DNA from: a virus
Length of the DNA stretch: 39,443 nt
UHGV virus genome: UHGV-0120658
Strand: one strand, 5' to 3'
The notes under the pieces are model-generated. The model saw only the letters and a list, made by a program, of their open reading frames with translations, was not told the DNA's origin and ran no database searches. Made by a program: the position numbers and the translations under genes. This document shows, one piece after another, positions 10,233-30,864 of this stretch; the first letter of the stretch is position 1, and each line of letters starts with the position of its first letter.

Positions 10233-10383
10233 GCGTAGCTCATGCAGGTGCATGAAAACCACTACATAAAGCGGGCAGGCGTGGCGGGGATACGAGCGCG
10301 CGCTTAGCCATGAATCTGTGGACTTGATGGTGAAGCTAAGGTAATTTGTATCAAAAAAAAGCAGTACAATAGGGATATATAGA

Positions 10384-14186: not shown

Positions 14187-15949
14187 AAAATCTCCACAAT
14201 ATTGCTGGTATTGGCGGACTCGCCCTGCAGCGGTTCGTTAAACAGTGCGTGCATTGTTGCCCAGGCCAGATCGGCATGGCTGGCTTCTTCACTGCGGCTT
14301 GCTTCATAGGTCGGGCGGTTGCCGCTGGCGGTGGTTGCGCGACGGATTGCCATAAATGACTGCGCTATGTCGGTGTGTCCGGCGTCAAACTCCAGACGAC
14401 GGTGACTGATAATGTCGTAGGCCTTGAGTACCAGGGCGTTTTTAACGTTGGGGTTGTAGACAAACTCCCGGACGGCTGGAAAAAACGCTTTCACGTTTTC
14501 ATAAACCCCGTGACCGACACCCGTCGAGTCGATGCCGATATAGGTCACGTTGTACTGTTCGGTCAGTTTTTTGATGGCGTCAGCCTGGGCGCGGAAGTCC
14601 ATCCCGCGCCACTGGTGACGCTCAAGAATGCGGAACTTACCGCCCGGCACGGCTGGCGGTGCCACCACCACGCATCCGGCGCTGTCGCCGTTTTGCGTAC
14701 CTTTTGCCGGGTCATAACCGATCCACACCTCGCGCCAGCCAAACGGGCGCAGGGCCAGTGCATGAAAGTCGGTCCAGACTTCCCAGCTGTCCACCATGCA
14801 CGCCTGCAGCTCGCTGAGCGGGAACACGGACGCGAGATCGTCCACGAACTCGCACATCAGCAGGTTCTGGTATTCGTCCGGGCTGTACTCCATGCGCAAC
14901 TGGTCAAGGTCGAACAGGTTACAGCCGCCGCGCACCGCATCTTCCACGGTGACTATCTGGCGGTATTGCCCGTCTGCGCACAGCAGGCCGGGGGCCAGAT
15001 TGCTATGGGACAGGTCGATGTCCACCTTGTCGGCTTTGTTGCGTCCACGGTTGAACAGCGCACCGGACCAGAACGGATAAGCACTGTGTGTCAGGCTGGA
15101 TGGCGTGGAAAAATAGGTTTGTCGCCATTTTTTGTGAATAGCCATACCGGAAGCCACTTTGCGCAGCTCCTGGAATTTCGGTATCCAGAAATATTCATCC
15201 AGATACAGGTTGCCGTGGTAACTCTGGGCCGTGCGGGCATTGGTGCCGAGGAAGTAAAGAGTGGCCCCGTTGGGAAGCACCATCGGATCGCCTTTCAGCT
15301 CCACCTCCACTTCTTTGGCGAAGTCGATGATGTACTGTTTAAAGACGTGGGCCTGTGCCTTACTGGCAGAAAGGAAAATCTGGTTACGTCCGGTTAGCAG
15401 GGCGTCAATCAGGGCTTCACGGGCAAAATAGAAGGTCGCGCCGATCTGGCGTGACTTCAGCAGGTTGCGGATGCGGTTGGTTTTTCCGGCTTCCCACCAG
15501 TGGCACTGGTAGTTGAACATGGAGGAATGGAAGATTTCTTCCAGCTTCTCAATCTGTTCATCGGTGAAAACATTCTTTTCCGGCTGACGGCGCGGGCCTT
15601 TGTTGCGGTTGGCGACGTTAGGGTTTAAGTCGGCTTCGTTGCCGCCATTGTTAAACTTGCCGATCCGCGCGTGGCGCTCCGACTGGCGCGCCAGCAGGTC
15701 AATTTCTTTAAAGTCTTTCCCTTCTTTGTGCTCCTTCATGATGAGCTGGCAGTAGCGTGCGGCGGTGGTGAGCTGCATCTGATCCAGCGGCCCATAGTCA
15801 CCCCACTTGTCGCGTTTTTTCCAGCTGTGAACGGTTGCAACTTTCTCGCCCAGCATTTCAGCAATGCGGGCTACGCGGTATCCCTGAAAGTACAGCAGCA
15901 TGGCCTGCCGACGGGGATCGAGATCTGCGGATGTCAGTGTGGTGTTCAT
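14183..15949 (-). CDS. P: Terminase large subunit, ATPase (P2 gpP-like)
   Basis: 588 aa; terminase-type deviant Walker A LLKSRQIGATF; ATGA overlap with Q. Confidence 0.85.
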   Translation of the reverse strand: MNTTLTSADLDPRRQAMLLYFQGYRVARIAEMLGEKVATVHSWKKRDKWGDYGPLDQMQLTTAARYCQLIMKEHKEGKDFKEIDLLARQSERHARIGKFNNGGNEADLNPNVANRNKGPRRQPEKNVFTDEQIEKLEEIFHSSMFNYQCHWWEAGKTNRIRNLLKSRQIGATFYFAREALIDALLTGRNQIFLSASKAQAHVFKQYIIDFAKEVEVELKGDPMVLPNGATLYFLGTNARTAQSYHGNLYLDEYFWIPKFQELRKVASGMAIHKKWRQTYFSTPSSLTHSAYPFWSGALFNRGRNKADKVDIDLSHSNLAPGLLCADGQYRQIVTVEDAVRGGCNLFDLDQLRMEYSPDEYQNLLMCEFVDDLASVFPLSELQACMVDSWEVWTDFHALALRPFGWREVWIGYDPAKGTQNGDSAGCVVVAPPAVPGGKFRILERHQWRGMDFRAQADAIKKLTEQYNVTYIGIDSTGVGHGVYENVKAFFPAVREFVYNPNVKNALVLKAYDIISHRRLEFDAGHTDIAQSFMAIRRATTASGNRPTYEASRSEEASHADLAWATMHALFNEPLQGESANTSNIVEIF

Positions 15950-15995
15950 GGCACAAACCTACAGCCTTGAATAAAGGCTTTCCCCGCCTGCGGTT

Positions 15996-16013
15996 TGTGT
16001 GGTTGTCGGTACA
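15996..16013. promoter_or_regulatory. Candidate late-activator (Ogr) site TGT-N12-ACA in the P/O divergent region
   Basis: TGTgtggttgtcggtACA centred about 88 bp upstream of the O start codon, as expected for a site at -55 of a P2-type late promoter. Confidence 0.4.
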
Positions 16014-16091
16014 AATACCGCGCATTGTTTCACTGCCCCCATCACCGCAACCATAAGGCTCCAGTAAGTTTTTTCTAACGGAGCACGGCTC

Positions 16092-16925
16092 ATGACAGTG
16101 AAAGCAAAGCGTTTTCGCATCGGGGTGGAAGGTGCCACCACCGACGGACGCGAAATCCAGCGTGAATGGCTGGAACAGATGGCAGCCAGCTACAACCCGG
16201 CGGTGTACACCGCGCTGATTAACCTTGAGCACATCAAGTCTTATCTGCCGGACAGCACCTTTAACCGCTACGGCAAGGTGACGGCGCTGTTTGCTGAAGA
16301 AATCACGGAAGGTCCGCTGGCAGGCAAGATGGCATTGTATGCCGACGTTGAGCCAACGGAGTCCCTGGTGGAACTGGTGAAAAAAGGCCAGAAATTATTC
16401 ACCTCTATGGAAGTCAGCCCGAAGTTCGCTGATACGGGCAAAGCCTACCTGGTTGGCCTGGCCGCCACTGATGATCCCGCCAGTCTGGGTACGGAAATGC
16501 TGACATTCAGCGCCAGTGCAGCCCATAACCCGCTGGCAAACCGCAAGCAGAATCCCGCCAATCTTTTTACCGCTGCAGAGGAAACGGTGATCGAACTGGA
16601 AGAAATCCAGGAGGACAAGCCGTCCCTGTTTGCCCGTGTCACGGCGCTGTTTACCAAAAAAGAGCAGTCCGATGACGCCCGGTTCTCTGATGTGCATAAG
16701 GCCGTGGAGCTGGTCGCCACTGAGCAGCAGAACCTGAGCGCACGCACCGAAAAATCCCTGTCTGAGCAGGAAGAACGCCTGTCTGAGCTGGAGACTGCTC
16801 TGCAGGAGCAGCAAACCGCCTTAAACGAACTGGTGAATAAGCTGAGTCATGAAGACAGCCGCCAGGACTACCGCCAGCGTGCAACAGGCGGTAACGCCCC
16901 CGCTGACACTCTGACCAATTGCTGA
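16092..16925 (+). CDS. O: Capsid scaffolding protein (P2 gpO-like)
   Basis: 277 aa, first gene of the rightward head operon, with a coiled-coil-rich C-terminus. Confidence 0.8.
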   Translation: MTVKAKRFRIGVEGATTDGREIQREWLEQMAASYNPAVYTALINLEHIKSYLPDSTFNRYGKVTALFAEEITEGPLAGKMALYADVEPTESLVELVKKGQKLFTSMEVSPKFADTGKAYLVGLAATDDPASLGTEMLTFSASAAHNPLANRKQNPANLFTAAEETVIELEEIQEDKPSLFARVTALFTKKEQSDDARFSDVHKAVELVATEQQNLSARTEKSLSEQEERLSELETALQEQQTALNELVNKLSHEDSRQDYRQRATGGNAPADTLTNC

Positions 16926-16941
16926 TGGAGCACAAAACCTG

Positions 16942-18000
16942 ATGAAGAAGAATACCCGCTTTGCTTTTAACGCTTACCTGCAGCAACTGGCACGTCTGAA
17001 CGGTGTGGCAGTTGAAGAACTGTCCAGCAAGTTCACTGTAGAGCCGTCTGTGCAGCAGACGCTGGAAGACCAGATCCAGCAGTCCGCCGCTTTCCTGACG
17101 CTGATTAACGTCACGCCAGTGCCTGAGCAGTCCGGTCAGCTGCTGGGGCTGGGTGTTGGCAGCACCATTGCCGGAACCACTGACACCACCGCGAAAGAGC
17201 GTGAACCTGTCGATCCGACGCTGATGGTCGATGTGGAATACAAATGCGAACAGACCAACTTTGACACGGTGCTGACCTACGCGAAGCTGGACCTGTGGGC
17301 GAAGTTTCAGGATTTCCAGGTGCGTATCCGTAACGCCATCGTGAAACGTCAGGCACTGGACCGCATCATGATTGGCTTTAACGGCGTGAAGCGTGCGAAA
17401 ACCTCTAACCGTAGCGAAAACCCGCTGCTGCAGGATGTGAACAAAGGCTGGCTGCAGAAAATCCGTGAGGATGCACCGGATCACGTCATGGGCAGCACCA
17501 CCACGGGCGGTGAAACCACACCGGGTGCGGTGAAAGTCGGGAAAGGTGGCGAATATGCCAACCTGGACGCCGTGGTGATGGATGCCGTCAATGAGCTTAT
17601 CGACGTGGTCTACCAGGACGATGACGATCTGGTGGTGATTTGCGGTCGTGAACTGCTGTCTGACAAGTATTTCCCGCTGGTCAACAAAGAGCAGGAAAAC
17701 AGTGAAAAACTGGCTGCCGATATGATCATCAGTCAGAAACGCATGGGTGGCCTTCAGGCCGTGCGTGCGCCGTTCTTCCCGCCGAATGCGCTGCTGATCA
17801 CCCGTCTGGATAACCTGTCCATCTACTGGCAGGAAGACACCCGCCGCCGTTCAGTTATCGACAACCCGAAACGTGACCGGATTGAAAACTTTGAATCCGT
17901 TAACGAAGCCTATGTGGTTGAGGACTACCGCTGCGCCGCACTGGTGGAAAACATCCAGATTGGTGATTTCAGCGCCGCCGCAGCCGAAACCGGAGCGTAA
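16942..18000 (+). CDS. N: Major capsid protein (P2 gpN-like)
   Basis: 352 aa; position and size match P2 N. Confidence 0.85.
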   Translation: MKKNTRFAFNAYLQQLARLNGVAVEELSSKFTVEPSVQQTLEDQIQQSAAFLTLINVTPVPEQSGQLLGLGVGSTIAGTTDTTAKEREPVDPTLMVDVEYKCEQTNFDTVLTYAKLDLWAKFQDFQVRIRNAIVKRQALDRIMIGFNGVKRAKTSNRSENPLLQDVNKGWLQKIREDAPDHVMGSTTTGGETTPGAVKVGKGGEYANLDAVVMDAVNELIDVVYQDDDDLVVICGRELLSDKYFPLVNKEQENSEKLAADMIISQKRMGGLQAVRAPFFPPNALLITRLDNLSIYWQEDTRRRSVIDNPKRDRIENFESVNEAYVVEDYRCAALVENIQIGDFSAAAAETGA

Positions 18001-18003
18001 TCC

Positions 18004-18654
18004 ATGAGCCTGAGTCCCGCACGGCAGCATCGCCTGCGCGTTCAGGCTGAACAGGCCGCCCGCGAGGGCGGCAGTGTTCGCCACGCATCGGGCTATGACC
18101 TGATGCTGCTGCAACTGGCGGAAGACCGCCGCCGTCTCAAGGGCGTTCAGTCCACGGTCAAAAAAGCGGAAATCAAGGTGGAGCTGCTGCCGAAGTACGC
18201 CGCCTGGGCAGAGGGTGTCCTGGCTGCCGGAGGCGCTCAACAGGATGACGTGCTGATGTACGTGATGCTGTGGCGCATTGATGCCGGAGATTATGCCGGG
18301 GCGCTGGAGATCGGGCGTCATGCCCTGCGTCATGGCTGGGTGATGCCGCTGGGTAACCGCAACGTGCAGACCGTGCTGGCAGAGGAAATGGCAGACGCCG
18401 CGCAGAGCGCAATGCTTGCCGCCACCGGCTTTGATGCCGATCTGTTGTTGCAGACGCTGGAGCTGACAGACGGTCTGGATATGCCGGACCAGTCACGGGC
18501 GCGTCTGCATAAAGCGATTGGCGCTGTCCTGAGTGAAAGCAATCCGGCTTCCGCCCTTAATCATCTCAACCATGCGTTACAGCTCGATCCCCGCTGTGGC
18601 GTGAAAAAAGACAAACAGCAGCTGGAGCGCAGACTGCGCAATGACAGCCGCTGA
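18004..18654 (+). CDS. M: Terminase small (endonuclease) subunit (P2 gpM-like)
   Basis: 216 aa following N, as in P2. Confidence 0.75.
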   Translation: MSLSPARQHRLRVQAEQAAREGGSVRHASGYDLMLLQLAEDRRRLKGVQSTVKKAEIKVELLPKYAAWAEGVLAAGGAQQDDVLMYVMLWRIDAGDYAGALEIGRHALRHGWVMPLGNRNVQTVLAEEMADAAQSAMLAATGFDADLLLQTLELTDGLDMPDQSRARLHKAIGAVLSESNPASALNHLNHALQLDPRCGVKKDKQQLERRLRNDSR

Positions 18655-18748
18655 CAGAACGTGCCCCGCGCACGGGCGGCACGGGGTGGCGAAAGGCACC
18701 GCCACATCAAAACCCCGTCCACCGCCCTCTATTTCAGGAGAAAGCAGC

Positions 18749-19213
18749 ATGAAGTTTGTTGCGCCAGAACAGGCACCGGAACAGGCGGAAATCATCAGGA
18801 ATACGCCGTTCTGGCCTGATGTGGACTTGTCGGAGTTTCGCAGTGTCATGCGCACTGACGGTACGGTGACGCAGCCGCGTTTAAAGCAGGTTGCGCTGTC
18901 GGCAATTTCGGAGGTCAACGCAGAGCTGTATGAGTTTCGCAGACGTCAGCAGATGCTGGGGTATGCGTCGCTGGCTGAGGTTCCGGCGGAACAGCTGGAC
19001 GGCAAAAGTGAGCGCATTCAGCATTATTTCAACGCGGTTTACTGCTGGGCACGCGCCATGCTCAACGAACGTTACCAGGACTATGACGCCACGGCGTCCG
19101 GTGTGAAGCGGGGCGAGGAACTGGCGGAAGCAAGCGGTGATTTGTGGCGTGACGCCCGCAGGGCCATCAGCCGGGTGCAGGATGCGCCGCACTGCACAGT
19201 GGAGCTTATCTGA
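18749..19213 (+). CDS. L: Head completion protein (P2 gpL-like)
   Basis: ATG at 18749 with CAGGAG RBS; NTPFWPDVDL...AELYEFRRRQ resembles P2 L. Confidence 0.75.
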   Translation: MKFVAPEQAPEQAEIIRNTPFWPDVDLSEFRSVMRTDGTVTQPRLKQVALSAISEVNAELYEFRRRQQMLGYASLAEVPAEQLDGKSERIQHYFNAVYCWARAMLNERYQDYDATASGVKRGEELAEASGDLWRDARRAISRVQDAPHCTVELI

Positions 19214-19416
19214 TGAAAGTGCGTGCGCATCAGTATGACACGGTGGACGCGCTTTGCTGGCGTCATTACGGGCGCACGCAGGGTGTCACGGAGCAGGTAC
19301 TGAAGGCAAATCCGGGGCTTGCCGAATACGGCCCCTTTTTACCTCACGGGCTGCAGGTGGAGCTGCCGGACATTCCGACCACCACCACCGTGCAGACCGT
19401 CCAGCTATGGGACTGA
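19213..19416 (+). CDS. X: Tail protein X (P2 gpX-like)
   Basis: 67 aa MKVRAHQYDTVDALCWRHYGRTQGV...LPHGLQVELPDI, very similar to P2 X. Confidence 0.85.
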   Translation: MKVRAHQYDTVDALCWRHYGRTQGVTEQVLKANPGLAEYGPFLPHGLQVELPDIPTTTTVQTVQLWD

Positions 19417-19419
19417 ATT

Positions 19420-19635
19420 ATGACGCTTGAGCGAATCAGTGCCTTTATCACGTATTGCATCGCCGTCGTGCTGGCCTGGCTGGGCGATTTGTCCATCAAG
19501 GATGCCTCAACGCTGGGCGGCCTGATGATTGGTGTGCTGATGCTGGCTATCAACTGGTACTACAAACATAAAGCCTACCAGCTTCTGCGCGACGGGCAGA
19601 TCTCGCGGGAGGACTATGAATCCATCAATCGTTAA
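19420..19635 (+). CDS. Holin (small two-TM, pinholin-like)
   Basis: 71 aa with two hydrophobic helices and a charged C-terminus, immediately upstream of the endolysin. Confidence 0.65.
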   Translation: MTLERISAFITYCIAVVLAWLGDLSIKDASTLGGLMIGVLMLAINWYYKHKAYQLLRDGQISREDYESINR

Positions 19636-20131
19636 ACGCTGCCTTGTCGGGGCCGTGCTGGCTATTGCAGCTACGTTGCCGGGTTTTCAGCAGCTTCACA
19701 CCTCCGTGGAGGGGCTGAAACTAATTGCCGATTACGAAGGCTGCCGTCTGCAGCCGTATCAGTGCAGTGCAGGTGTCTGGACCGACGGCATTGGTAATAC
19801 ATCGGGCGTCATTCCCGGCAAAACAATCACGGAACGACAGGCAGCAGAAGGGCTGATTTCCAACGTGCTGCGTGTGGAGCGGGCGCTGGAAAGGTGTGTG
19901 AAGCAACAGCCGCCGCAGAAGGTATATGACGCTACGGTGTCGTTTGCCTTCAACGTGGGAACGGGCAATGCCTGCAGTTCCACACTGGTGAAATTACTCA
20001 ATCAGCGGCGCTGGGCAGAAGCGTGCCGACAGTTGCCGCGCTGGGTTTATGTGAAAGGTGTGTTTAATCAGGGGCTGGATAACCGCCGTGCGCGGGAGAT
20101 GGCCTGGTGCCTTAAAGGAGCTGGACTATGA
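19616..20131 (+). CDS. Endolysin, T4-lysozyme-type muramidase with an N-terminal SAR-like segment
   Basis: N-terminal Gly/Ala-rich weakly hydrophobic stretch KRCLVGAVLAIAATLPGF followed by the lysozyme motif EGLKLIADYEGCRLQPYQCSAGVWTDGIGNT. Confidence 0.8.
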   Translation: MNPSIVKRCLVGAVLAIAATLPGFQQLHTSVEGLKLIADYEGCRLQPYQCSAGVWTDGIGNTSGVIPGKTITERQAAEGLISNVLRVERALERCVKQQPPQKVYDATVSFAFNVGTGNACSSTLVKLLNQRRWAEACRQLPRWVYVKGVFNQGLDNRRAREMAWCLKGAGL

Positions 20132-20556
20132 CGCGTGCGCTGGCGGTAGTGGCGGCGCTGGCACTCGTTGCGCTGGGCTGGCAGTCGTGGCGGCTTAACA
20201 GCGCCAGCCACACCATCGAAACGCAGCGCGCGGCGCTGAAAAGTAAAGCGCACGAACTAACGAAGAAAAATAGCCAGCTGATCAGTCTGTCCATTCTGGC
20301 TGAAACCAATAACCGGGAGCAGGCGCGGCTCTATGCCGAAGCAGAACAGACCAGCGCGCTGCTGAGACAACGACAACACCGGATCGAGGAACTGAAACGT
20401 GAGAACGAGGATTTACGCCGCTGGGCTGATACTCCTTTGCCTGCTGACATTATCCGGCTGCGAAAACGTCCGGTATTCACCGGAGGTGCAGCTTACCGTC
20501 AGTGGTTGTCCGCGAGTGACGCCGTGTCGGCTGGATCAGGCAACGCCGCGCACTAA
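20128..20556 (+). CDS. i-spanin (Rz/LysB-like)
   Basis: N-terminal TM segment ALAVVAALALVALGW, then a coiled-coil periplasmic domain. Confidence 0.7.
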   Translation: MTRALAVVAALALVALGWQSWRLNSASHTIETQRAALKSKAHELTKKNSQLISLSILAETNNREQARLYAEAEQTSALLRQRQHRIEELKRENEDLRRWADTPLPADIIRLRKRPVFTGGAAYRQWLSASDAVSAGSGNAAH

Positions 20557-20689
20557 CGGTGATCTGAACGCGTTGCTGGATGAAACGGAGGCCGCCTGGG
20601 CGGTCTGTGCAGACAAAGTGGACATGATTATTGCGTGTCAGGAGCGAAACAGTGAACAAACCACAATCCCTGCGCCACGCCCTCAATAA
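20399..20689 (+). CDS. o-spanin lipoprotein (Rz1/LysC-like), overlapping the i-spanin in the +1 frame
   Basis: Signal peptide with lipobox LTLSGC; GTG start with GAGGA RBS. Begins inside the i-spanin gene and runs past its end. Confidence 0.65.
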   Translation: MRTRIYAAGLILLCLLTLSGCENVRYSPEVQLTVSGCPRVTPCRLDQATPRTNGDLNALLDETEAAWAVCADKVDMIIACQERNSEQTTIPAPRPQ

Positions 20690-21083
20690 AGCAGTGCCTT
20701 ATGTCCGCAATAACCCGGACAAACTGCATCTGTTTGTGGATAACGGTTCGCTGGTTGCCACGGGGGCCAGCTCCATGTCATGGGAGTACCGCTATACCCT
20801 GAACGTGGTGATTGAGGATTTCAGCGGCGACCAGAATCTGCTGATGGCCCCGGTTTTGCTGTGGCTGCGGGATAATCAGCCTGATGCCATCAATAACCCG
20901 GCGTTACGGGAAAAGTTATTCACCTTTGAGGTGGATATTCTGCGCAATGATGTCTGTGATATCAGCCTTAACCTGCAACTGACGGAGCGTGTGCTGGTCA
21001 GCACTGATGGCAGTGTGTCGAGTGTTGAAGCTGTAGCGGAACCCGATGAACCTGAAGAAATGTGGACGGTGAAACGTGGCTGA
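20652..21083 (+). CDS. R: Tail completion protein (P2 gpR-like)
   Basis: GTG start with AGGAG RBS; VNKPQSLRHALNKAV...FVDNGS aligns with P2 R. Confidence 0.75.
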   Translation: MNKPQSLRHALNKAVPYVRNNPDKLHLFVDNGSLVATGASSMSWEYRYTLNVVIEDFSGDQNLLMAPVLLWLRDNQPDAINNPALREKLFTFEVDILRNDVCDISLNLQLTERVLVSTDGSVSSVEAVAEPDEPEEMWTVKRG

Positions 21084-21522
21084 ATTGCAGAAGGTGGACG
21101 GCTGGTTGAGTGCCTTGCTGGCGAATCTGGAGCCAGCCGCAAGAAGCCGTATGATGCGCCAGCTGGCGCAAGAACTGCGCCGGACACAGCAGCAGAACAT
21201 CAGGATGCAGCGCAATCCAGATGGCAGTAGTTATGAGCCGCGCAGAGTAACAGCACGCAGCAAAAAGGGGCGCATCAAACGTCAGATGTTTGCAAAGCTG
21301 CGCACCAAAAAATACCTGAAAACTGCCGCCAGCGCCGATTCTGCCAGCGTGCAGTTTGAAGGTAAGGTGCAGCGCATTGCCCGCGTTCATCACTACGGCC
21401 TGCGTGATCGTGTTAGTCGTAAGGGGCCGGAGGTACGTTATGCTGAGCGGCGGCTATTGGGTTTCAACGATGAAGCTACTCTTCAAATTAAGACAATTTT
21501 ATCTAGTTACTTAATGGGGTGA
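21076..21522 (+). CDS. S: Tail completion protein (P2 gpS-like); last ~13 codons come from AT-rich inserted DNA
   Basis: 148 aa; conserved through ...GPEVRYAERRLLGFNDE, then the sequence turns AT-rich (from about 21470) and the C-terminal tail ATLQIKTILSSYLMG lies in that AT-rich DNA. Confidence 0.75.
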   Translation: MAELQKVDGWLSALLANLEPAARSRMMRQLAQELRRTQQQNIRMQRNPDGSSYEPRRVTARSKKGRIKRQMFAKLRTKKYLKTAASADSASVQFEGKVQRIARVHHYGLRDRVSRKGPEVRYAERRLLGFNDEATLQIKTILSSYLMG

Positions 21523-21614
21523 AGATTCATGCTTTTGCTAGCTTCTACAAGGTTTTATGCTTCTAAACACTGTATGTTTAATTTGACATATAACTATTTG
21601 TACAAGCGGTGAGT

Positions 21615-22838
21615 ATGAAAAAGCAAGATGAGTCCCCCAAAGCTGATAAATCAAATTTAGATAAAAGTGAGTCTGAACCACCAAAAGCGAACTCTATGGC
21701 AGATGCCATGGCCATAGCGGCAGAGGTTGCTACGACAGCAACGTCAGTTCAAACATCAACCTTTGCAATTATCGCGGATTTTCTACGTTCAGGTGGTATA
21801 GAAAAACTAACTTCAAATGCTATCAAAAATTTAGAAATAAAAGTAAAGGGCCATTCTCAAGCGACAAGAACTACGGTATTGAGGAACCTGAAGACCTCTT
21901 TCAAAGAGGAGAATTTAGTTCTTGTTTTAGGTGCTGGCATTTCTTTAGATTACAGCATACCAACATGGAGTGAATTATTAAAGCGGCTATTGGCAAGAGC
22001 TTTGGATGATAAAAATGAAAATCAGAAAATGGTATCGGTTTTGTTTAATGAGGTTTTCGGTCCGAACGCACTCATAGCAGCCAGATATCTAAAACTACAC
22101 TTTGATGGTATTAATACTCCCTTGGAAAAAGAAATTCAGCATGTTTTGTATGAATATTATCAGGAGGAAGAAAGCAGTACATTGAAAGCAATCAAGAAAT
22201 TGTGCATATCGGCAGGCAAGTCACCAGGTCTAGATTCCGTTATTACATATAACTATGATGATATTTTGGAACAGACATTAACTAGAGCTGATGTTTGTAT
22301 AAAGTATAAGGTGATTTCAAAGACGGGACAGCATGCAAAAAATGATGAACTGCCGATCTACCATGTGCATGGCTATCTCCCATTGCAGGGGAAAGTTGAA
22401 CTCGATGACACGCTAGTCCTTTCTGATGAAAGCTATCATAGGCAATACATGGATTTATACCATTGGAGCAATATGGTTCAGTTGAATAAATTCAAAGATG
22501 GAAATTGCCTGTTTGTTGGTCATTCCTTTACAGATCCAAACCTCAGAAGGTTGATGGATACAGCCAAAAAACTTAGAGGGAATGATTCTAAACCTCATTA
22601 TTTAATTAAGTGTAGACATTCGAAAGAAGATGTGATTGCTAATATTCAAAGAATTGTTAGTGACTCAAGAAATGGATTTGATAATAAACTGAATATTAAT
22701 GAGGATGCAATCGCGACCTCTCTTTTACAGACAGTGCATACTTTTGAAGAAATCGATGCTAATTCATTTGGCGTGAATGTTATTTGGATCGACTCTTACG
22801 ATGAGATTGCACCAATACTTAATGATCTAACACAATAA
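21615..22838 (+). CDS. Standalone SIR2-like (SIR2_2 family) protein; candidate NAD+-depleting defence effector
   Basis: AT-rich gene between S and V. Motifs in family order: LVLVLGAGISLDYSIPTWSELL (GAGIS at 21930-21944), ITYNYDDILE, IYHVHGYL, LVLSDESYHRQY, CLFVGHSFTDPNLRRL. About 100-aa charged N-terminal extension. The track ORF starts at GTG 21609. Confidence 0.65.
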   Translation: MKKQDESPKADKSNLDKSESEPPKANSMADAMAIAAEVATTATSVQTSTFAIIADFLRSGGIEKLTSNAIKNLEIKVKGHSQATRTTVLRNLKTSFKEENLVLVLGAGISLDYSIPTWSELLKRLLARALDDKNENQKMVSVLFNEVFGPNALIAARYLKLHFDGINTPLEKEIQHVLYEYYQEEESSTLKAIKKLCISAGKSPGLDSVITYNYDDILEQTLTRADVCIKYKVISKTGQHAKNDELPIYHVHGYLPLQGKVELDDTLVLSDESYHRQYMDLYHWSNMVQLNKFKDGNCLFVGHSFTDPNLRRLMDTAKKLRGNDSKPHYLIKCRHSKEDVIANIQRIVSDSRNGFDNKLNINEDAIATSLLQTVHTFEEIDANSFGVNVIWIDSYDEIAPILNDLTQ

Positions 22839-22849
22839 TCTCCCTAAGT

Positions 22850-22867
22850 TGTGCCAGAAATGGCACA
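22850..22867. promoter_or_regulatory. TGT-N12-ACA palindrome upstream of V (late-activator site or hairpin terminator of the SIR2-like gene)
   Basis: TGTgccagaaatggcACA; also a 7-bp stem-loop. Its centre is only 57 bp from the V start codon, so assignment is ambiguous. Confidence 0.3.
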
Positions 22868-22915
22868 GCTTTAAATCCTATCCTAATGACGGCAGCATTT
22901 GGCAATCTAATTGCC

Positions 22916-23494
22916 ATGAACGCTCAACTAACAGAAATCATGCGCCTTATCACCAATCTGATCCGCACTGGTGTAGTCACCGAAGTGGACCGGGAAAACT
23001 GGCTTTGTCGGGTGAAAACGGGCGACCTTGAAACCAACTGGATTAACTGGCTGACACTGCGCGCGGGCAAATCGCGCACCTGGTGGAAACCGTCTGTGGG
23101 TGAGCAGGTTGTGCTGTTCAGCCTTGGCGGCAATCTGGAAACCGCGTTTGCCCTGCCTGCGGTCTACTCAAACCAGTTTCCGCCACCTTCAGATTCTGAG
23201 AACGGTAACGTGACGGAATACCCGGACGGTGGCTGGTTTGAATACGAACCCGCCACCGGGCGCTGGTATGTCAGGGGCATCAAATCAATGGTCATTGAGG
23301 CCGCTGACAACATCACCATGAAAGCCAGTGAGTTTGTACTGGAGGCTGACCGCACGCGCATTAACAGCGAAGTGGTGATCAATGGTGGCGTTACCCAGGG
23401 CGGCGGAGCGATGAGTTCTAACGGGATCGTGGTTGATGCGCATCAGCATACTGGCGTCCTGAAAGGCGGCGATACAACCGGAGGCCCGGTATGA
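22916..23494 (+). CDS. V: Baseplate spike/assembly protein (P2 gpV-like)
   Basis: MNAQLTEIMRLITNLIRTGVVTEVD aligns with the remembered P2 V N-terminus; the track ORF from 22886 is an upstream extension. Confidence 0.85.
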   Translation: MNAQLTEIMRLITNLIRTGVVTEVDRENWLCRVKTGDLETNWINWLTLRAGKSRTWWKPSVGEQVVLFSLGGNLETAFALPAVYSNQFPPPSDSENGNVTEYPDGGWFEYEPATGRWYVRGIKSMVIEAADNITMKASEFVLEADRTRINSEVVINGGVTQGGGAMSSNGIVVDAHQHTGVLKGGDTTGGPV

Positions 23495-23850
23495 CGCTTT
23501 ATAGCGGGATGAACAATACCAGCGGCAAAGTCATTACTGATATTGACCATCTGAGCCAGTCGGTACGGGACATTCTGCTGACACCGCAGGGTAGCCGTAT
23601 TGCCCGTCGTGAATATGGTTCCCTGCTGTCGGCACTGATAGACCAGCCACAAAATCCAGCATTACGCCTGCAGGTCATGTCGGCAGTGTATGTAGCGCTG
23701 AGTCGCTGGGAGCCACGGCTGACGCTGGACTCCATCACCATTAACAGCAATTTTGACGGTTCAATGGTGGTGGGGCTGACCGGGCGGCGTAATAACGGTG
23801 TGCCTGTTTCCCTTTCCGTATCAACAGGAGCAGAGAATGGCAGTGATTGA
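23491..23850 (+). CDS. W: Baseplate wedge protein (P2 gpW-like)
   Basis: 119 aa; ATGA overlap with V. Confidence 0.8.
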   Translation: MTLYSGMNNTSGKVITDIDHLSQSVRDILLTPQGSRIARREYGSLLSALIDQPQNPALRLQVMSAVYVALSRWEPRLTLDSITINSNFDGSMVVGLTGRRNNGVPVSLSVSTGAENGSD

Positions 23851-24745
23851 CCTTTCGCAGTTGCCTGCGCCGCAGATTGTGGATGTGCCGGACTTTGAGA
23901 CGCTGCTTGCCGAACGCAAGGCAGAATTTGTGGCGCTTCATCCGAAAGATGAGCAGGAAGCAGTGATGCGTACGCTGGAACTGGAATCTGAACCCGTCAC
24001 CAAATTGCTGCAGGAGAACGCTTACCGTGAGTTGCTTCTGCGCCAGCGCATTAACGAAGCCGCGCAGGCTGTGATGGTGGCTTACGCGATGGGCGGCGAT
24101 CTTGACCATCTCGCTGCTAACTACAACGTGAAACGCCTGACGGTGACACCTGCTGATGATGACGCTGTACCGCCCGTTGCGGCTGTGATGGAAAGTGATG
24201 AAGCGTTACGCCTGCGTGTGCCTGCAGCCTTTGAAGGGCTTTCTGTTGCTGGGCCAACTGCCGCTTATGAGTTTCATGCACGAAGCGCCGACGGTCGGGT
24301 GGCGGATGCCAGTGCAACCAGTCCGGCACCTGCAGAGGTGGTGCTTACGGTCCTAAGCCGTGAAGGCGACGGAACAGCAGAAAAAGACCTGCTGGATGTG
24401 GTGGAGAAAGCCCTGAACAGTGAGAACGTCCGCCCGGTGGCTGACCGTCTGACGGTTCGCAGCGCGGAAATCATCCCGTACCGCGTGGAAGCCACCATTT
24501 TTCTCTATCCGGGGCCGGAAGCAGAGCCGGTAATGGCAGCGGCAAAAGCCAGCCTGCAGAGGTACATCGCCAGTCAGACGCGGCTTGGTCGGGATATTCG
24601 CCGTAGCGCCATTTTTGCCGCGCTGCATGTTGAGGGTGTTCAGCGTGTGGAACTAGCTTCCCCGCTGGCGGATGTGGTCATGAACAAAACGCAGGCGGCA
24701 TCATGTACGCAGTGGAGCGTGACCAACGGGGGTACGGATGAATAG
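23837..24745 (+). CDS. J: Baseplate assembly protein J (P2 gpJ-like)
   Basis: ATG at 23837 gives 302 aa, the P2 J length; overlaps the W stop. Confidence 0.8.
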   Translation: MAVIDLSQLPAPQIVDVPDFETLLAERKAEFVALHPKDEQEAVMRTLELESEPVTKLLQENAYRELLLRQRINEAAQAVMVAYAMGGDLDHLAANYNVKRLTVTPADDDAVPPVAAVMESDEALRLRVPAAFEGLSVAGPTAAYEFHARSADGRVADASATSPAPAEVVLTVLSREGDGTAEKDLLDVVEKALNSENVRPVADRLTVRSAEIIPYRVEATIFLYPGPEAEPVMAAAKASLQRYIASQTRLGRDIRRSAIFAALHVEGVQRVELASPLADVVMNKTQAASCTQWSVTNGGTDE

Positions 24746-25343
24746 TCTGCTGCCACCGGGTTCAACGCCACTGGAGCGCCGACTGGCGCAAACCTGCAGC
24801 GGGATTTCTGATCTGCAGGTGCCGCTGCGTGACTTGTGGAATCCGGCAACCTGTCCGGTCAGTTTCCTGCCTTATCTCGCCTGGGCGTTCTCTGTGGATC
24901 GCTGGGACGAGGGCTGGACAGAAAGCGTCAAACGTCAGGTGGTGAAGGATGCTTTTTATATTCATCAGCATAAAGGAACCACCAGTGCCGTGCGGCGGGT
25001 GGTGGAGCCGTTCGGCTTTCTGATCCGCATTATTGAGTGGTGGCAGACCGGAGAGGCACCGGGCACGTTTCGTCTGGATATCGGCGTGCAGGACCAGGGC
25101 ATCACTGAAGATACCTATCTGGAACTTGAGCGACTGATAAGCGATGCCAAACCATGTAGCCGTCACATGATCGGCATGTCCATCAACCTGCAGACCAGCG
25201 GCCCGCACTGGGTGGGAGCCGCCAGCTATCTTGGCGAAGAAATCACGATCTATCCGTATATCAACGAAACAATTATTTCCGGCGGCACCGCGCATGAAGG
25301 CGGGGCGGTCCATGTTATTGACACAATGAGAGTGAATCCATGA
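24738..25343 (+). CDS. I: Baseplate/tail protein I (P2 gpI-like)
   Basis: 201 aa between J and H. Confidence 0.75.
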   Translation: MNSLLPPGSTPLERRLAQTCSGISDLQVPLRDLWNPATCPVSFLPYLAWAFSVDRWDEGWTESVKRQVVKDAFYIHQHKGTTSAVRRVVEPFGFLIRIIEWWQTGEAPGTFRLDIGVQDQGITEDTYLELERLISDAKPCSRHMIGMSINLQTSGPHWVGAASYLGEEITIYPYINETIISGGTAHEGGAVHVIDTMRVNP

Positions 25344-26884
25344 GCACAAAATTTTATACCCTGCTGACGGATATTGGCGCGGCGAAACTTGCCAGCGCCG
25401 CCGCGCTCGGTGTGCCGCTAAAAATTACCCATATGGCGGTGGGCGATGGCGGCGGAGTATTGCCGACGCCGGACGCAAAGCAGACTGCACTGGTAAATGA
25501 GAAACGCCGGGCTGCGCTGAATATGCTCTATATCGACCCGCAGAACAGCAGCCAGATTATTGCTGAACAGGTGATCCCTGAAAACGAGGGCGGTTGGTGG
25601 ATACGTGAAGTGGGCCTGTTTGATGAGTCAGGGGCATTGATTGCCGTGGGGAACTGCCCGGAAAGCTATAAACCGCAACTGGCTGAAGGCAGCGGGCGCA
25701 CCCAGACCGTGCGCATGGTGCTGATTACCAGCAGCAAGGAAAATATCACCCTGAAAATCGATCCTGCTGTAGTGCTGGCAACCCGCAAGTATGTGGATGA
25801 CAAGGTACTGGAGCTGAAGGTGTATGTGGATGACCTGATGGCAAAACACCTTGCCGCACAGGACCCACATTCACAGTATGCACAGAAAGAAAGTCCGACG
25901 TTTACCGGGAAACCCAAAGCGCCAACGCCAGCAGCAGGGAATAACACCACGCAGATTGCGACCACCGCGTTTGTTCAGGCGGCACTGATGGCCCTTATTA
26001 ATGGTGCGCCAGCCACACTGGATACGCTGAAAGAAATTGCCGCTGCCATTAATAATGACCCGAAATTCAGTACCACCATTAACAATGCGCTGGCACTGAA
26101 AGCGCCGTTGTCGAGTCCGGCACTCACCGGAACGCCAACAGCCCCCACGGCGGCGCAGTCGGTCAACAATACACAGATTGCCACTACGGCTTTTGTGAAA
26201 TCGGCGATTGCGGCAATGGTGGGTTCTGCACCTGCGGCACTGGATACACTGAACGAACTGGCGGCGGCGCTGGGGAATGACCCGAACTTTGCCACGACAA
26301 TGCTTAATGCACTGGCAGGTAAACAACCGCTGGACAATACGCTGACTAATTTGAGTGGAAAGGATGTAGCTGGTCTTCTCACATACCTTGGTTTGGGAGA
26401 AGGCTCAGCGTTACCCGTTGGTGTGCCTGTTCCGTGGCCTTCAGCCACACCACCAACAGGCTGGCTGAAATGCAACGGTGCACCTTTTTCTGCCGAAGAG
26501 TACCCAAAACTGGCAAAGGCTTACCCAAAGTTAAAATTACCGGATTTGCGCGGTGAGTTTATTCGCGGGTGGGATGATGGGCGAGGTGTTGATTCCGCGA
26601 GACTGCTACTTTCAAGTCAGGCGGCATCTATCCTTGAACATAACCATGAAATGCATGGATGGACAGGGAACCCACTCATGGCTAGAGATGTTTATTCATC
26701 CGGTTCATCCGTATTTGCGGTGCAGTTGAGCATTGGCGATGGCGGGTTATTGTATTCGTGGAAGGATGGGAGTGGAACAACAAATGACAGTAAACGAATG
26801 GATAGAACAAATCATGTCAGTTCCGGCGCCGGTGATGGTAGCCCGCGAAACATTGCATTTAACTACATTGTGAGGGCTGCATAA
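25340..26884 (+). CDS. H: Tail fibre protein (P2 gpH-like); C-terminal part lies in the invertible segment
   Basis: Conserved N-terminus MSTKFYTLLTDIGAAKLA; the variable C-terminal part begins downstream of the inversion site at about 26388. Confidence 0.85.
   Translation: MSTKFYTLLTDIGAAKLASAAALGVPLKITHMAVGDGGGVLPTPDAKQTALVNEKRRAALNMLYIDPQNSSQIIAEQVIPENEGGWWIREVGLFDESGALIAVGNCPESYKPQLAEGSGRTQTVRMVLITSSKENITLKIDPAVVLATRKYVDDKVLELKVYVDDLMAKHLAAQDPHSQYAQKESPTFTGKPKAPTPAAGNNTTQIATTAFVQAALMALINGAPATLDTLKEIAAAINNDPKFSTTINNALALKAPLSSPALTGTPTAPTAAQSVNNTQIATTAFVKSAIAAMVGSAPAALDTLNELAAALGNDPNFATTMLNALAGKQPLDNTLTNLSGKDVAGLLTYLGLGEGSALPVGVPVPWPSATPPTGWLKCNGAPFSAEEYPKLAKAYPKLKLPDLRGEFIRGWDDGRGVDSARLLLSSQAASILEHNHEMHGWTGNPLMARDVYSSGSSVFAVQLSIGDGGLLYSWKDGSGTTNDSKRMDRTNHVSSGAGDGSPRNIAFNYIVRAA
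26376..26401. repeat. Left inversion site (hix/gix-like 26-bp site) inside H
   Basis: TTCTCACATACC-TT-GGTTTGGGAGAA; the half-sites are an imperfect inverted repeat and resemble the remembered Gin/Hin half-site pattern TTxTCxxAAACC. Confidence 0.6.
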
Positions 26885-27487
26885 ATGGAACAGGTTATTT
26901 TGGGAAAAGACGGTTACGCTTTAAATGATGGGGAAATCATCGTACATAACTATGATGGCGAAACGCGGGAATATATTTCCACATCAACTGAATATCTTGC
27001 GGTTGGCGTCGGTATCCCGGCATGTTCTTGTTTAGATGCACCAGTTACACATAAAGCTGGTTATACAATTTGCCGTTCTGTGGATTTAAAATCATGGGAA
27101 TATGTGTCAGACCATCGCGGTGAAATCGTCTATAACACCGAAACGGGAGACGCCAAAGAAATCACAGCTCCGGGTGATTACCCTGAAAATACAACCACTA
27201 TCGCCCCATTAACGCCATACGATAAATGGGATGGTGAGAAATGGGTGACCGATACTGAGGCACAGCATCGCGCCGCAGTAGACGCGACAGAAGCACAGCG
27301 TCAGTCACTGATTGATACTGCAATGGCTTCCATTAGTCTGATTCAACTGAAATTACAGGCCGGGCGGAAACTGACGCAGGCAGAAACAACCCGGCTTAAC
27401 GCTGTGCTGGATTACATTGACGCGGTGACGGCAACAGATACCAGCACCGCGCCGGATGTCATCTGGCCTGAACTGCCGGAGGAGTAG
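26885..27487 (+). CDS. G: Tail fibre assembly protein (P2 gpG-like)
   Basis: 200 aa after H; its C-terminus resembles that of the alternative Tfa on the other strand. Confidence 0.8.
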   Translation: MEQVILGKDGYALNDGEIIVHNYDGETREYISTSTEYLAVGVGIPACSCLDAPVTHKAGYTICRSVDLKSWEYVSDHRGEIVYNTETGDAKEITAPGDYPENTTTIAPLTPYDKWDGEKWVTDTEAQHRAAVDATEAQRQSLIDTAMASISLIQLKLQAGRKLTQAETTRLNAVLDYIDAVTATDTSTAPDVIWPELPEE

Positions 27488-27899
27488 GCCATTCAATATC
27501 TGGTGCACTGGAAGTATCGACCAGCTCCAGTGCGTCCAGATAATCCAGCCACAAATTATATTGCGCCAGTTCCTCACCTTTCAGACGACCAATTGATGCT
27601 TTACCTGGCCATTGTTTACTGTTGATGTATTCGTTGGCCTGGTTAATCAATTGCTGCTTTTTAGTTTCGGCTGATGCAATTTGTTCTTCACGTGTTGGTG
27701 GAGGAACATCTGCCCAAGCTGGCATTCCGTCGCCTGCGGTAATTCTGCGCTTACCTTCGGGCGGCGTGTCATAGAAATATTCCCTGAAAATAGCTTCGTC
27801 TATATCCACGCCTTTACCTTCGGGCCATTGGCCTTTTGCAGCGTAAACAGACTGGAGGGCATAAGGGTACGCCAGATTATCAACATACAAATATTTCAT
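27459..27899 (-). CDS. Alternative tail fibre assembly protein (tfa'), inverted orientation
   Basis: 146 aa on the minus strand, convergent with and overlapping G; C-terminal SAPDIEWPTPP parallels TAPDVIWPELP in G. Confidence 0.7.
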   Translation of the reverse strand: MKYLYVDNLAYPYALQSVYAAKGQWPEGKGVDIDEAIFREYFYDTPPEGKRRITAGDGMPAWADVPPPTREEQIASAETKKQQLINQANEYINSKQWPGKASIGRLKGEELAQYNLWLDYLDALELVDTSSAPDIEWPTPPAVQAR

Positions 27900-27901
27900 A
27901 A

Positions 27902-28231
27902 TTAACGCCCTTTCGCGTAGAAGGCTCCACCTTCAAAGCCATAGTTACAATGAGCAACGAAACCTGTTTTCGTCCAGTTAGTTGCGCCCCACATATTCCC
28001 ACCACCAAAACCGCCGTCATATACAATCACTACGTCTGGCTCCTGCGTAAAAGGAATGGTGAAAGTCACATTTGTAGATACCGCCGCGGCGTTATTCGGG
28101 AAATTAATTCTTCCCCACTGTTCAATTGAACCATCAGGCAATTTTTGCCAGCCAGATCCTGATGAATAAGCTGACATATCAGGTATCTGATTTTCCCCTG
28201 TCCCTACATCCCGTTTTGCCGCCTCTCCCAA
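27902..28231 (-). other. Promoterless alternative tail fibre C-terminal cassette (H'), expressed only after inversion
   Basis: Minus-strand ORF with no ATG, starting at the right inversion site; in frame with the H constant part across the shared GLGE crossover codons. Confidence 0.65.
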
Positions 28232-28248
28232 ACCAACCTTTGAAAATG
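28223..28248. repeat. Right inversion site (inverted copy)
   Basis: CTCTCCCAAACC-AA-CCTTTGAAAATG; the core TCTCCCAAACCAA (28224-28236) is the exact reverse complement of TTGGTTTGGGAGA (26388-26400). Confidence 0.6.
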
Positions 28249-28270
28249 GTCACCTATATAGGTGACCATT
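28245..28270. other. Perfect 26-bp palindrome AATGGTCACCTATATAGGTGACCATT (terminator or protein-binding site)
   Basis: Exact reverse-complement symmetry; sits between the orf140 stop and the right inversion site. Confidence 0.5.
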
Positions 28271-28274
28271 CGGG

Positions 28275-28697
28275 TTAATGCAGCGTTGTAGTTGAGCTGG
28301 ACTCTGCCATTGCCACTGTCAATTCATCGCCTTCGGCTGAGATCTTAATGGTATTACTTCCTTCTGATTTAGCGCCTTTTGGTAGACCTAGCTGATCATA
28401 GATACACAAGAATCTTGAATCATTTATAAAGGTGATTTCTGTTACAGTCCCACCTTCAACGACCTTAGAGTCTATTGATTTTATCAAATTGATATCCTGA
28501 ACATTAATGTGCTTTATCGCATCCCAGTTAAGGCTGATGTCCACGTTATCCTTTTGCATCGTTATCACATGACCGGCCTTATGCTGGGTTGTGACTTTTC
28601 CATCAGGGCTCATCGTAATCTTTTGCCCCATGTGATAAATAATTTGAGTTCCGTCTTCGAGACACTCGATTTTTGGCTCTTTAGTAAAGTCGTTCAT
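28275..28697 (-). CDS. Hypothetical 140-aa protein at the Z/fun-equivalent position
   Basis: AT-rich ORF between the invertible segment and the invertase gene; no recognised motif. Confidence 0.5.
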   Translation of the reverse strand: MNDFTKEPKIECLEDGTQIIYHMGQKITMSPDGKVTTQHKAGHVITMQKDNVDISLNWDAIKHINVQDINLIKSIDSKVVEGGTVTEITFINDSRFLCIYDQLGLPKGAKSEGSNTIKISAEGDELTVAMAESSSTTTLH

Positions 28698-28902
28698 GAA
28701 AATCCTTCAATTATCTGTTGCTGGAAGGTGCTAATCTACACGAATCCTTGGTTATGTATGTAATGAGGCTCTAGAAATCCACTTGAATATAAATAAATTT
28801 TTATGGTGTTGGCTTGTAATGCTCGCGTAGCTCTTTGTCAAAAGTGAAACTCTGATAACCTGGTTCTACTGACGAACAGAAGGATGAGCAGGAGATCGCT
28901 TT

Positions 28903-29463
28903 ATGATTATTGGGTATGCACGAGTATCAAGTAACCATCAGGACACCGAGCTTCAGATGCAGGCGCTCAGAGCTGCTGGCTGTAAGTTAATTTTTGAGGA
29001 AAAGGCTTCTGGCCGTAAGACGAATCGACCAATCTTGAAGAAAGTGGTTGAGATGCTTGAACCCGGTGACGAACTGGTCATCTGGAAGTTAGATCGTATC
29101 GGTCGCAATGTACTGCACGCATTATTGACCTTTCAGAGCCTCGCAGAACGCAATGTTAATATTCGTTCTATTACAGATGGCGTTGACCTGAGCACTGCCA
29201 GTGGGCGCTATAACTTCCGTAATATTCTCTCTGCGGCACAATATGAGTCTGATCTGAATAGTGAACGCACTCTGGCAGGGTTAGCGGTTGCCCGCGCTAA
29301 GGGGAGGATTGGCGGACGTAAGCCTAAGTATACTGATGAGCACTGGGATGCGTTTGAACGGGAAATTAAGTCCGGCTGCTCACATCGTGATATAGCTCTC
29401 AAATATGGGGTCGGCCTGTCGACTCTCTACAAACGTTATCCGCCTCAGCAAGAGCATCACTAA
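28903..29463 (+). CDS. Serine recombinase, DNA invertase (Hin/Gin/Pin/Cin family)
   Basis: N-terminal catalytic domain MIIGYARVSSNHQDTELQMQAL with the active-site serine in RVSS; C-terminal HTH. Confidence 0.85.
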   Translation: MIIGYARVSSNHQDTELQMQALRAAGCKLIFEEKASGRKTNRPILKKVVEMLEPGDELVIWKLDRIGRNVLHALLTFQSLAERNVNIRSITDGVDLSTASGRYNFRNILSAAQYESDLNSERTLAGLAVARAKGRIGGRKPKYTDEHWDAFEREIKSGCSHRDIALKYGVGLSTLYKRYPPQQEHH

Positions 29464-29599
29464 ACACTCTTTGCGTTCATTTTTGCACTGTGCAGAATGT
29501 GTCTTTTTGGCACCTTCTGGCAGTGCAAAATTTATCGCGTTTTGGTGCAAAAAAAATCGCCGCGCTACAATCTGCGGGGATTTTTTTTGCCCCTTCCAT

Positions 29600-29617
29600 T
29601 GTGCCATTCTCCACACA
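29600..29617. promoter_or_regulatory. Candidate late-activator site TGT-N12-ACA upstream of FI
   Basis: TGTgccattctccacACA centred about 84 bp upstream of the FI start codon. Confidence 0.4.
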
Positions 29618-29691
29618 TAGCCCGGTGCGTGCGCAGTGCGCATATCAACCAGAACATAGGCAGACACCCTGTAAACCGGAGAGACTGCCTT

Positions 29692-30864
29692 ATGGCTCAG
29701 GACTACCACCACGGCGTGCGCGTTGTTGAAATCAACGAGGGCACCCGATCCATTACCACGGTGAGCACCGCCATTGTGGGCATGGTATGCACCGGCGATG
29801 ATGCTGATGCGTCCATGTTTCCACTCAATAAGCCGGTTCTGCTGACCGATGTGTTGACCGCCAGCGGTAAAGCGGGCGAGTCCGGCACGCTGGCCCGTTC
29901 GCTGGATGCGATTGCAGACCAGGCTAAACCCGTGACCGTCGTTGTACGTGTGGCGCAGGGCGAAACCGAAGCGGAAACCACCTCCAACATTATCGGCGGC
30001 GTGACCGCTGACGGTAAAAAGACGGGCATGAAAGCGCTGCTTTCGGCGCAGTCGCAGCTCGGCGTCAAGCCGCGCATTCTCGGCGTGCCGGGACACGACA
30101 CGCAGGCGGTTGCCACTGAGCTGCTGAGCGTGGCGCAGAGCCTGCGCGGGTTTGCTTATCTGTCCGCCTATGGCTGCAAAACGGTGGAAGAAGCGATTGC
30201 CTACCGTGACAATTTCAGCCAGCGCGAGGGGATGCTGATCTGGCCTGACTTCATCAACTTTGACACCGTGCTGAATGCAGATGCGACGGCTTACGCCTCC
30301 GCTCGTGCGCTCGGCCTGCGTGCCAAAATTGACGAGCAGACCGGCTGGCACAAAACCCTGTCCAACGTGGGCGTGAATGGTGTCACCGGCATTTCCGCTG
30401 ATGTGTTCTGGGATCTGCAGGACCCGGCAACCGATGCGGGACTGTTGAACCAGAACGACGTCACCACGCTTATCCGCAAAGACGGCTTCCGCTTCTGGGG
30501 TTCCCGCTGCCTCAGTGACGATCCGCTGTTTGCCTTTGAGAACTACACCCGCACGGCGCAGGTGCTGGCTGACACCATCGCAGAAGCGCACATGTGGGCG
30601 GTGGATGGCGTGCTTAACCCATCGCTGGCCCGTGACATTATCGAAGGTATCCGCGCCAAGCTGCGCAGCCTGAAAGCGCAGGGTTACATCATCGGCGCAG
30701 ACTGCTGGCTGGATGAGTCGGTGAACGATAAAGACTCCCTGAAAGCCGGGAAGCTCACTATCGACTACGACTACACGCCGGTGCCGCCGCTTGAAAACCT
30801 GATGCTGCGCCAGCGCATCACCGATCAGTACCTGCTGGATTTCTCCAGCCAGGTCAGCGCGTAA
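29692..30864 (+). CDS. FI: Tail sheath protein (P2 gpFI-like)
   Basis: ATG at 29692 with GGAGAG RBS gives 390 aa, close to P2 FI; the track ORF from 29497 is an upstream extension. Confidence 0.85.

Follow-up and report, generated by a model that had tools for sequence, protein, structure and literature searches.

The window analysed here, UHGV virus genome UHGV-0120658 (39,443 nucleotides in all), is a P2-like prophage (Peduoviridae, Elveevirus-type) that carries three exact TGT-N12-ACA dyads upstream of its late operons. We conclude that these dyads are very probably the binding sites of the prophage's own Ogr-type late activator, a well-known, textbook kind of regulatory element in P2-like phages, and that one of them appears to be a single site for two divergent promoters, pP leftward and pO rightward. 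The window's late region is ~96% identical to that of Escherichia phage Cartapus (Peduoviridae, Elveevirus), and both share with P2 the same four late operons in the same gene order. In P2, 186 and P4, an Ogr-type activator acts on an inverted repeat centered ~55 bp 5' of each late transcript start, and sigma-70 polymerase is recruited via its alpha subunit to promoters lacking a usable -35 element. The motif TGT-N12-ACA is the published consensus of activator sites (PMC3931495); Ogr binds inverted repeats at about -55 and requires RNA polymerase's alpha subunit (PMC3152322), and rpoA109 suppressors are located in ogr (PMC11434276).

All three dyads match the consensus exactly, and none is assigned to a strand. 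The shared pP/pO dyad, TGTGTGGTTGTCGGTACA, occupies 15996-16013 (center 16004.5), the pV dyad, TGTGCCAGAAATGGCACA, 22850-22867 (center 22858.5), and the pF dyad, TGTGCCATTCTCCACACA, 29600-29617 (center 29608.5); the extended left half-site TTGTG is present at each. Their centers lie 87.5, 57.5, and 83.5 bp from the start codons of O (GPO scaffold/protease, 16092-16925, plus strand), V (22916-23494, plus strand), and the sheath gene FI (29692-30864, plus strand), respectively. A preliminary description made from the sequence of the window had listed the same three coordinates, with spacings of 84-88 bp for O and FI and 57 bp for V, and our measurements agree. The sites precede the first genes of late operons P-Q, O to S, V to G, and FI to D, with the leftward P-Q operon, whose first gene is P (terminase large subunit, 14183-15949, minus strand; Pfam Terminase_5/6N/6C), covered by the shared dyad. 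A Pfam search of the window's proteins bore out the identities of the genes flanking all three motifs, and also identified an ogr homolog (36320-36538, plus strand; Ogr_Delta PF04606, E = 6.7e-22; open reading frame trimmed to the homologous start) that encodes 72 residues with a CX2CX22CX4C zinc finger, as read from the translation. Position, relatives, and this encoded ogr strongly support the earlier proposal that the motifs are Ogr/B-type activator sites upstream of late operons. A consensus scan of 15800-30000 called no canonical sigma-70 promoter at any of the four promoter positions, which is the architecture expected of activator-dependent promoters. When aligned on the dyad centers, however weak their match to consensus, xAnnnT hexamers at the four promoters share the register seen at promoters that have been mapped in P2 and 186.

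Exact TGT-N12-ACA sites are found at the same three offsets in Cartapus, SEN8 (Salmonella, Felsduovirus), phi13.6 (Klebsiella, Gegevirus), and YenM31.17 (Yersinia, Graikaemvirus), with a different N12 spacer in each. We then collected larger samples of each region. Upstream of V, 80 IMG/VR loci found by a V-protein search, together with the window, gave 30 distinct 100-nt variants in 15 mutually unalignable clusters; all 30 have an exact site 54.5-57.5 bp from the V ATG. For FI, 79 loci and the window yielded 69 distinct variants, every one with an exact site 78.5-85.5 bp from the FI ATG. For the P-O intergenic region, an initial scan with the O protein returned only relatives at 98-100% with nearly invariant intergenic DNA (16 close variants), so scans with the YenM31.17 and phi13.6 O proteins were added, producing 79 further variants of two other lineages. 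All 16 of the former and 78/79 of the latter have an exact site whose distance from the P ATG is 55.5 or 56.5 bp, the lone exception (L286) having a degenerate TGT-N12-CAG in the same position. The spacer and flanks vary freely among the relatives' sites. Thus, six bases and their spacing are constant over more than 100 promoter variants that otherwise drift freely or are not homologous, making this a natural footprint of unusual clarity. The rule does not hold for all Peduoviridae, as Vibrio Kappa and the 705R2/Chuche/ST16phi5.4 group have no exact N12 site between P and O.

Nucleotide homology between the window and Cartapus restarts exactly at the V ATG (22916) and the FI ATG (29691/2), indicating that pV and pF lie within swapped, non-homologous cargo DNA in which motif and spacing have been kept. 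Homology with SEN8 and phi13.6, as with Cartapus, also breaks and resumes exactly at the V and FI start codons (for SEN8, at 29628 for FI), so the promoter DNA of pV and pF belongs to the S-V and G-FI cargo cassettes. The preliminary description had suggested that cargo insertion may have altered the V promoter, given its short spacing. The data contradict this idea: a spacing of 54.5-57.5 bp is the rule in all 30 variants of the 15 families, and P2 pV is alike, with its dyad ~56 bp from the V ATG.

The short spacing at V is instead consistent with a leaderless message. In the P2 record, the pV transcript and the V ATG begin at the same base. A GCAATCT -10-like element lies equally far from the V ATG in P2 and in the window, where it forms part of a predicted extended -10, TGgCAATCT (22900-22908, plus strand; TGCAATCT in P2). 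We made these promoter comparisons by anchoring on the dyad center and on the ATG, as the regions are too divergent for MAFFT pairwise alignment to be of use. Among the relatives, an xAnnnT hexamer lies within 1 nt of positions -12 to -7 in 20/20 unique V variants, while a Shine-Dalgarno (SD) core is present in 1/20. The pV transcript is therefore predicted to start at or adjoining the V ATG (22916), which would make the V mRNA leaderless. In known leaderless messages, such as lambda cI transcribed from pRM and P2 gene V, the start codon is at the transcript start and the -10 hexamer takes the place of the SD. Window V resembles leaderless P2 V, and P in the window's lineage has the same signature, there as a prediction only. 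Where PMC4633059 cites Christie & Calendar 1985, P2 is given as the source of one of few known leaderless E. coli messages.

The pV dyad is also a perfect 7+4+7 palindrome (TGTGCCA, GAAA, TGGCACA), and it sits within a predicted RNA/DNA hairpin (22846-22871, plus strand; -16.9 kcal/mol, z = -6.2), 12 nt past the stop codon of a co-directional SIR2-like gene. This raises the possibility that the palindrome is chiefly an RNA hairpin serving that gene, as a terminator, insulator, or 3'-end stabilizer, with the motif match incidental or in a dual role. In favor of such a role, of 18 V-site cores the two that fold most strongly each lie behind a co-directional SIR2-type open reading frame and have GNRA loops (GAAA and GCAA), and sites behind minus-strand cargo mostly fold weakly. 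However, these two cassettes are homologous (69% amino acid and 73% nucleotide identity) and so count as one evolutionary event. The hairpin arms are the extended half-site TTGTGCCA, which is common at F and P-O sites, so that a perfect dyad suffices to explain the palindrome. Moreover, motif and offset are retained whichever cargo precedes them. The hairpin lacks a U-tract, its tail being GCTTTAAATCC, and the terminator scan made no call there, leaving a terminator role unsupported. We consider it unlikely that the palindrome is mainly an RNA element. The earlier observation that the V site doubles as a hairpin stands, and a dyad behind co-directional cargo may also act as an RNA hairpin.

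The SIR2-like gene encodes a 407-amino-acid SIR2_2-domain protein (21615-22838, plus strand, identified by Pfam; the open reading frame starts at 21609 or 21615); it occupies the S-V hotspot and is read in the direction of the late operons. PADLOC matches to this protein are weak (LmuA-SIR2 and ThsA-like, ~1e-20). A 69%-identical homolog occupies the same locus in L135, and that cassette keeps the hairpin, with a GCAA loop. No terminator was predicted between S (21076-21522, identified by Pfam) and the SIR2_2 gene.

The preliminary description found no equivalent site for the P-Q operon. The operon does have one, shared with pO, just as a single annotated site covers both divergent promoters in P2 and 186. 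The 15996-16013 dyad is palindromic, with 55.5 bp between its center and the A of the P ATG, a geometry kept in 78 of the 79 further P-O variants. The P2 record has one activator site (3057-3087) for pO and pP, with starts at 3016 (P) and 3127 (O), each 55.5 bp from the center of a TGT-N12-CCA; in the dyad-anchored alignment, the mapped P2 pP start falls on the A of the window's P ATG. A predicted -10-like hexamer, TAGGTT (15956-15961, minus strand), matches P2 TAGCCT position for position. Across relatives, the distance from this dyad to the O ATG varies (84.5-97.5 bp) while the distance to the P ATG remains 55.5 or 56.5 bp in at least six genera. TAnnnT occurs at -12 to -7 of P in 34/35 unique variants, and an SD core in 0/35. 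Within the hexamer, the inner bases differ among variants (TATGTT, TAGCCT, TAACCT, and others), a pattern characteristic of a -10 element rather than an SD. With the Terminase_5 domain beginning at residue 11 and no further start codon 5' of it, the ATG at 15949 is the one usable P start. The pP transcript is thus predicted to start at 15949, the A of the P ATG, and, judging from this geometry, the P mRNA is rather likely to be leaderless in the window's lineage.

In the opposite direction, pO has a predicted -10-like hexamer, AACCAT (16049-16054, plus strand), in the same register as P2 pO GAAACT. The mapped P2 pO start is 55.5 bp from the dyad center, and by this comparison the window's pO transcript is predicted to start at ~16060-16062, with an SD GGAG between it and the O ATG at 16092. 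An SD core is present in 28/28 unique O variants, with TAnnnT at -12 to -7 in 0/28. Start-codon flanks therefore split the four genes, with O and FI having an SD core and P and V having a -10-like hexamer instead.

SEN4 shares this dyad-to-P geometry, and so does Aeromonas LPM4, where the spacer is N13. This suggests that a leaderless terminase-large-subunit mRNA may be made in Elveevirus, Felsduovirus, Gegevirus, Graikaemvirus, Senquatrovirus, and Aeromonas LPM4 (loci L247-L371, L380, and L373). P2, 186, and ST147-VIM1phi7.1 differ: in these phages the dyad center is 78.5 bp from the P ATG, corresponding to a 23-nt leader that is absent from the window. No report of a leaderless terminase mRNA in P2-like phages was found in the literature searched.

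We also asked how well a separate promoter or site with a conventional leader could account for the P-Q operon. Lying 30 bp to the right of the shared dyad is a conserved element, GTTGTTTCAC...CCATC (16026-16043), which reads TGT-N12-ATC in the window and may serve as the -35 region of pO or as another activator site. Many Yersinia-phage relatives (L250, L252, L256, L258, L260, L276, and others) have a second exact TGT-N12-ACA in its place, at a distance of 86.5 bp from the P ATG. In favor of a conventional leader, P2 and 186 have a 23-nt P leader, and an AGG at -11 to -9 in the window is passable as a weak SD. However, the second element is degenerate in the window and most lineages, and a start 55 bp away from it would need a -10 within GC-rich DNA that has none. 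The near-universal TAnnnT, the un-SD-like inner bases (TATGTT, TAACCT, and TAGCCT), and the invariant dyad-to-ATG distance also argue against it, and we regard a separate P site as improbable.

At the third site, an intrinsic-terminator-like hairpin followed by a T-run (29560-29588, plus strand; -15.9 kcal/mol, z = -3.0) would end upstream transcription just before the pF dyad, paralleling the terminator annotated before pF in P2. The corresponding distances are 82.5 bp for P2 pF (to the FI ATG) and 81.5 bp for 186 pJ (to the sheath-gene ATG), close to the 83.5 bp measured in the window. The mapped P2 pF and 186 pJ starts are 56.5-58.5 bp from the dyad center; in this register, the window has a candidate -10-like hexamer, GAACAT (29652-29657, plus strand), and a predicted pF start at ~29664-29667. 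The SD of FI, GGAG, is at 29678-29681, and FI variants have an SD core in 22/23 unique cases and TAnnnT at -12 to -7 in 0/23.

Comparison with other characterized phages places the window's sites within a known family of regulatory elements. P2, like the window, has a 72-amino-acid CX2CX22CX4C activator gene after D, and the window's O protein is ~44-46% identical to P2 O. The P2 (L001) sites are at 3063-3080, 10243-10259, and 17561-17578 and are imperfect, as are those of 186 (L083). P2 has TGT-N12-CCA at pO/pP and pF and TGT-N11-ACA at pV, versus the perfect TGT-N12-ACA of the window. The contrast between perfect sites in Elveevirus, Felsduovirus, Gegevirus, and Graikaemvirus and imperfect ones in P2 and 186 hints that half-site preference may differ between Ogr clades. 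The 186 record has a single B-protein site for the divergent p12 and pV and another for pJ; 186 differs from the window in having a CCA half-site and a leader on its P homolog (78.5 bp). The window's early region is 186-type (CI, Apl/Cox, CII, and Fil), like that of the close relative Cartapus. For Smp131 and the Ralstonia phages phiRSY1 and phiRSA1, late sites were predicted from the motif alone, as in the window. In Smp131, pP' and pO' were placed on one 18-mer, on opposite strands (PMC3931495), and the Ralstonia phages have TGTTGT-N13-ACAACA (PMC5694545). The window has N12; like these Ralstonia phages, Aeromonas LPM4 and phiCTX have N13 spacing.

What is established for this phage family suggests how the late operons would be switched on. 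Ogr would be made once replication has begun and would then occupy each dyad, and its contact with the alpha C-terminal domain (alpha-CTD) would bring RNA polymerase to promoters of a weak, extended -10 type. The P/O dyad in the middle would fire both ways, with a pO start near 16060 and a pP start at 15949, the 22850-22867 site would activate pV, starting at or next to the V ATG, and the 29600-29617 site would activate pF, starting near 29665. The V and P messages would begin at their own AUG, and the O and FI messages would have leaders of ~25-32 nt with a GGAG SD. That Ogr binds the dyads, where exactly the transcripts start, and that P and V are translated without a leader are inferred from sequence comparisons. 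The composite picture, in which one Ogr dyad drives two divergent promoters and terminase mRNA begins at its own ATG across a large P2-like clade, the P-Q and V-G operons begin with leaderless mRNAs, and pV and pF are carried inside swapped cassettes, is one that we favor on balance.

The TGT...ACA core is shared by host regulators, and the dyads could in principle be sites for one of these, such as CRP, whose half-sites likewise start with TGTGA and end with TCACA. The CRP consensus TGTGA-N6-TCACA separates TGT and ACA by 10 bp, however, as opposed to 12 in the window and essentially all relatives. The sites also track the late operons of ogr-carrying P2-like phages and fit the published Ogr/B/delta consensus, making a host regulator highly improbable.

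Several observations weigh against Ogr-dependent control as we have drawn it. The window's Ogr is 51% identical to P2 Ogr across all 72 residues, and the sites of P2 and 186 are themselves imperfect, so the details of recognition may not be the same. The predicted -10 hexamers match weakly. In E. coli, leaderless messages are reportedly translated with low efficiency (PMC4633059), which sits poorly with a terminase gene that is essential. Finally, the bare motif occurs 14 times in the window versus 10.45 +/- 3.3 expected; the extended TTGTG-N11-ACA is mildly enriched, with 7 matches versus 1.7 expected (7 was reached in 1/100 shuffles). As the bare motif is not over-represented, the case against chance rests on position and relatives and not on counts. 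That the three motifs are chance matches of a low-information pattern (six specified bases) to intergenic DNA, as at least 11 of the 14 lacking promoter context and the placement of all five exact matches in the P2 genome away from late promoters might suggest, is effectively refuted by the exact match at a fixed offset in 15/15 V families, 69/69 FI variants, and 78/79 P-O variants, a match within a 4-position window having a chance probability of ~1e-3 per family.

Other matches and near-matches in the window were considered individually. An exact TGT-N12-ACA over the P ATG (15938-15955) reads TTGTGCC ATG AAC ACC ACA on the minus strand, a good extended half-site. We rejected it as a required element, as it is present in just 10/23 unique variants; it is probably not required, and a secondary or autoregulatory Ogr site is possible. 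A second exact motif, 5' of the SIR2 gene (21571-21588), was rejected as a late-promoter site on geometry, with 35.5 bp between its center and the ATG. Situated in the AT-rich spacer between S and the SIR2 gene, it includes a perfect TTGACA and is probably a chance match or a piece of a sigma-70 promoter for the cargo gene. A position weight matrix (PWM) of the relatives' sites, used just to seek further sites in the window, found none that was convincing; it overrates the O and F sites, whose flanks are homologous. The third-best PWM score belongs to a near-consensus GTTGCGTCATTCTCGCTACAAC (TGC-N12-ACA) at 36031-36048, in the 3' part of gene D, ~280 bp 5' of ogr. A near-perfect palindrome at 10-29, TTGTGTACATTTGTACACAA, also fits the motif; it is left of the integrase gene, apparently outside the prophage, and is presumably an operator of some host regulator.

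The window has two further cargo or variable regions. A two-gene Lamassu defense system (10384-13111) occupies the gpA-gpQ cargo hotspot, with LmuA (DUF4297, E = 4e-143) and LmuB (E = 9e-254). An invertible tail-fiber segment (26885-29463), as annotated in Cartapus and SEN8, has opposed tail-fiber and assembly open reading frames followed by a Gin/Hin-type DNA invertase (28903-29463; Pfam Resolvase and HTH_7). Tail-gene hotspots are mentioned in PMC13586616, and no report of promoters carried inside the cargo cassettes of such hotspots was found in the literature searched.

For annotation, these results settle where the late promoters lie in a Klebsiella/E. coli prophage type that is common, and they correct two errors that are easily made: reading the V promoter as "damaged" and the P promoter as "missing". 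They also yield two modest by-products. The first is the prediction that a leaderless terminase mRNA would be made across a large clade of P2-like phages. The second arises from the position of the homology breaks, exactly at the V and FI start codons, so that each cargo cassette must carry or regenerate a correctly spaced dyad; defense-cargo cassettes in tail-gene hotspots are thus predicted to supply the activator-dependent promoter for the essential operon downstream. Such cassette-borne promoters would bear on how cargo swaps leave late gene expression intact.

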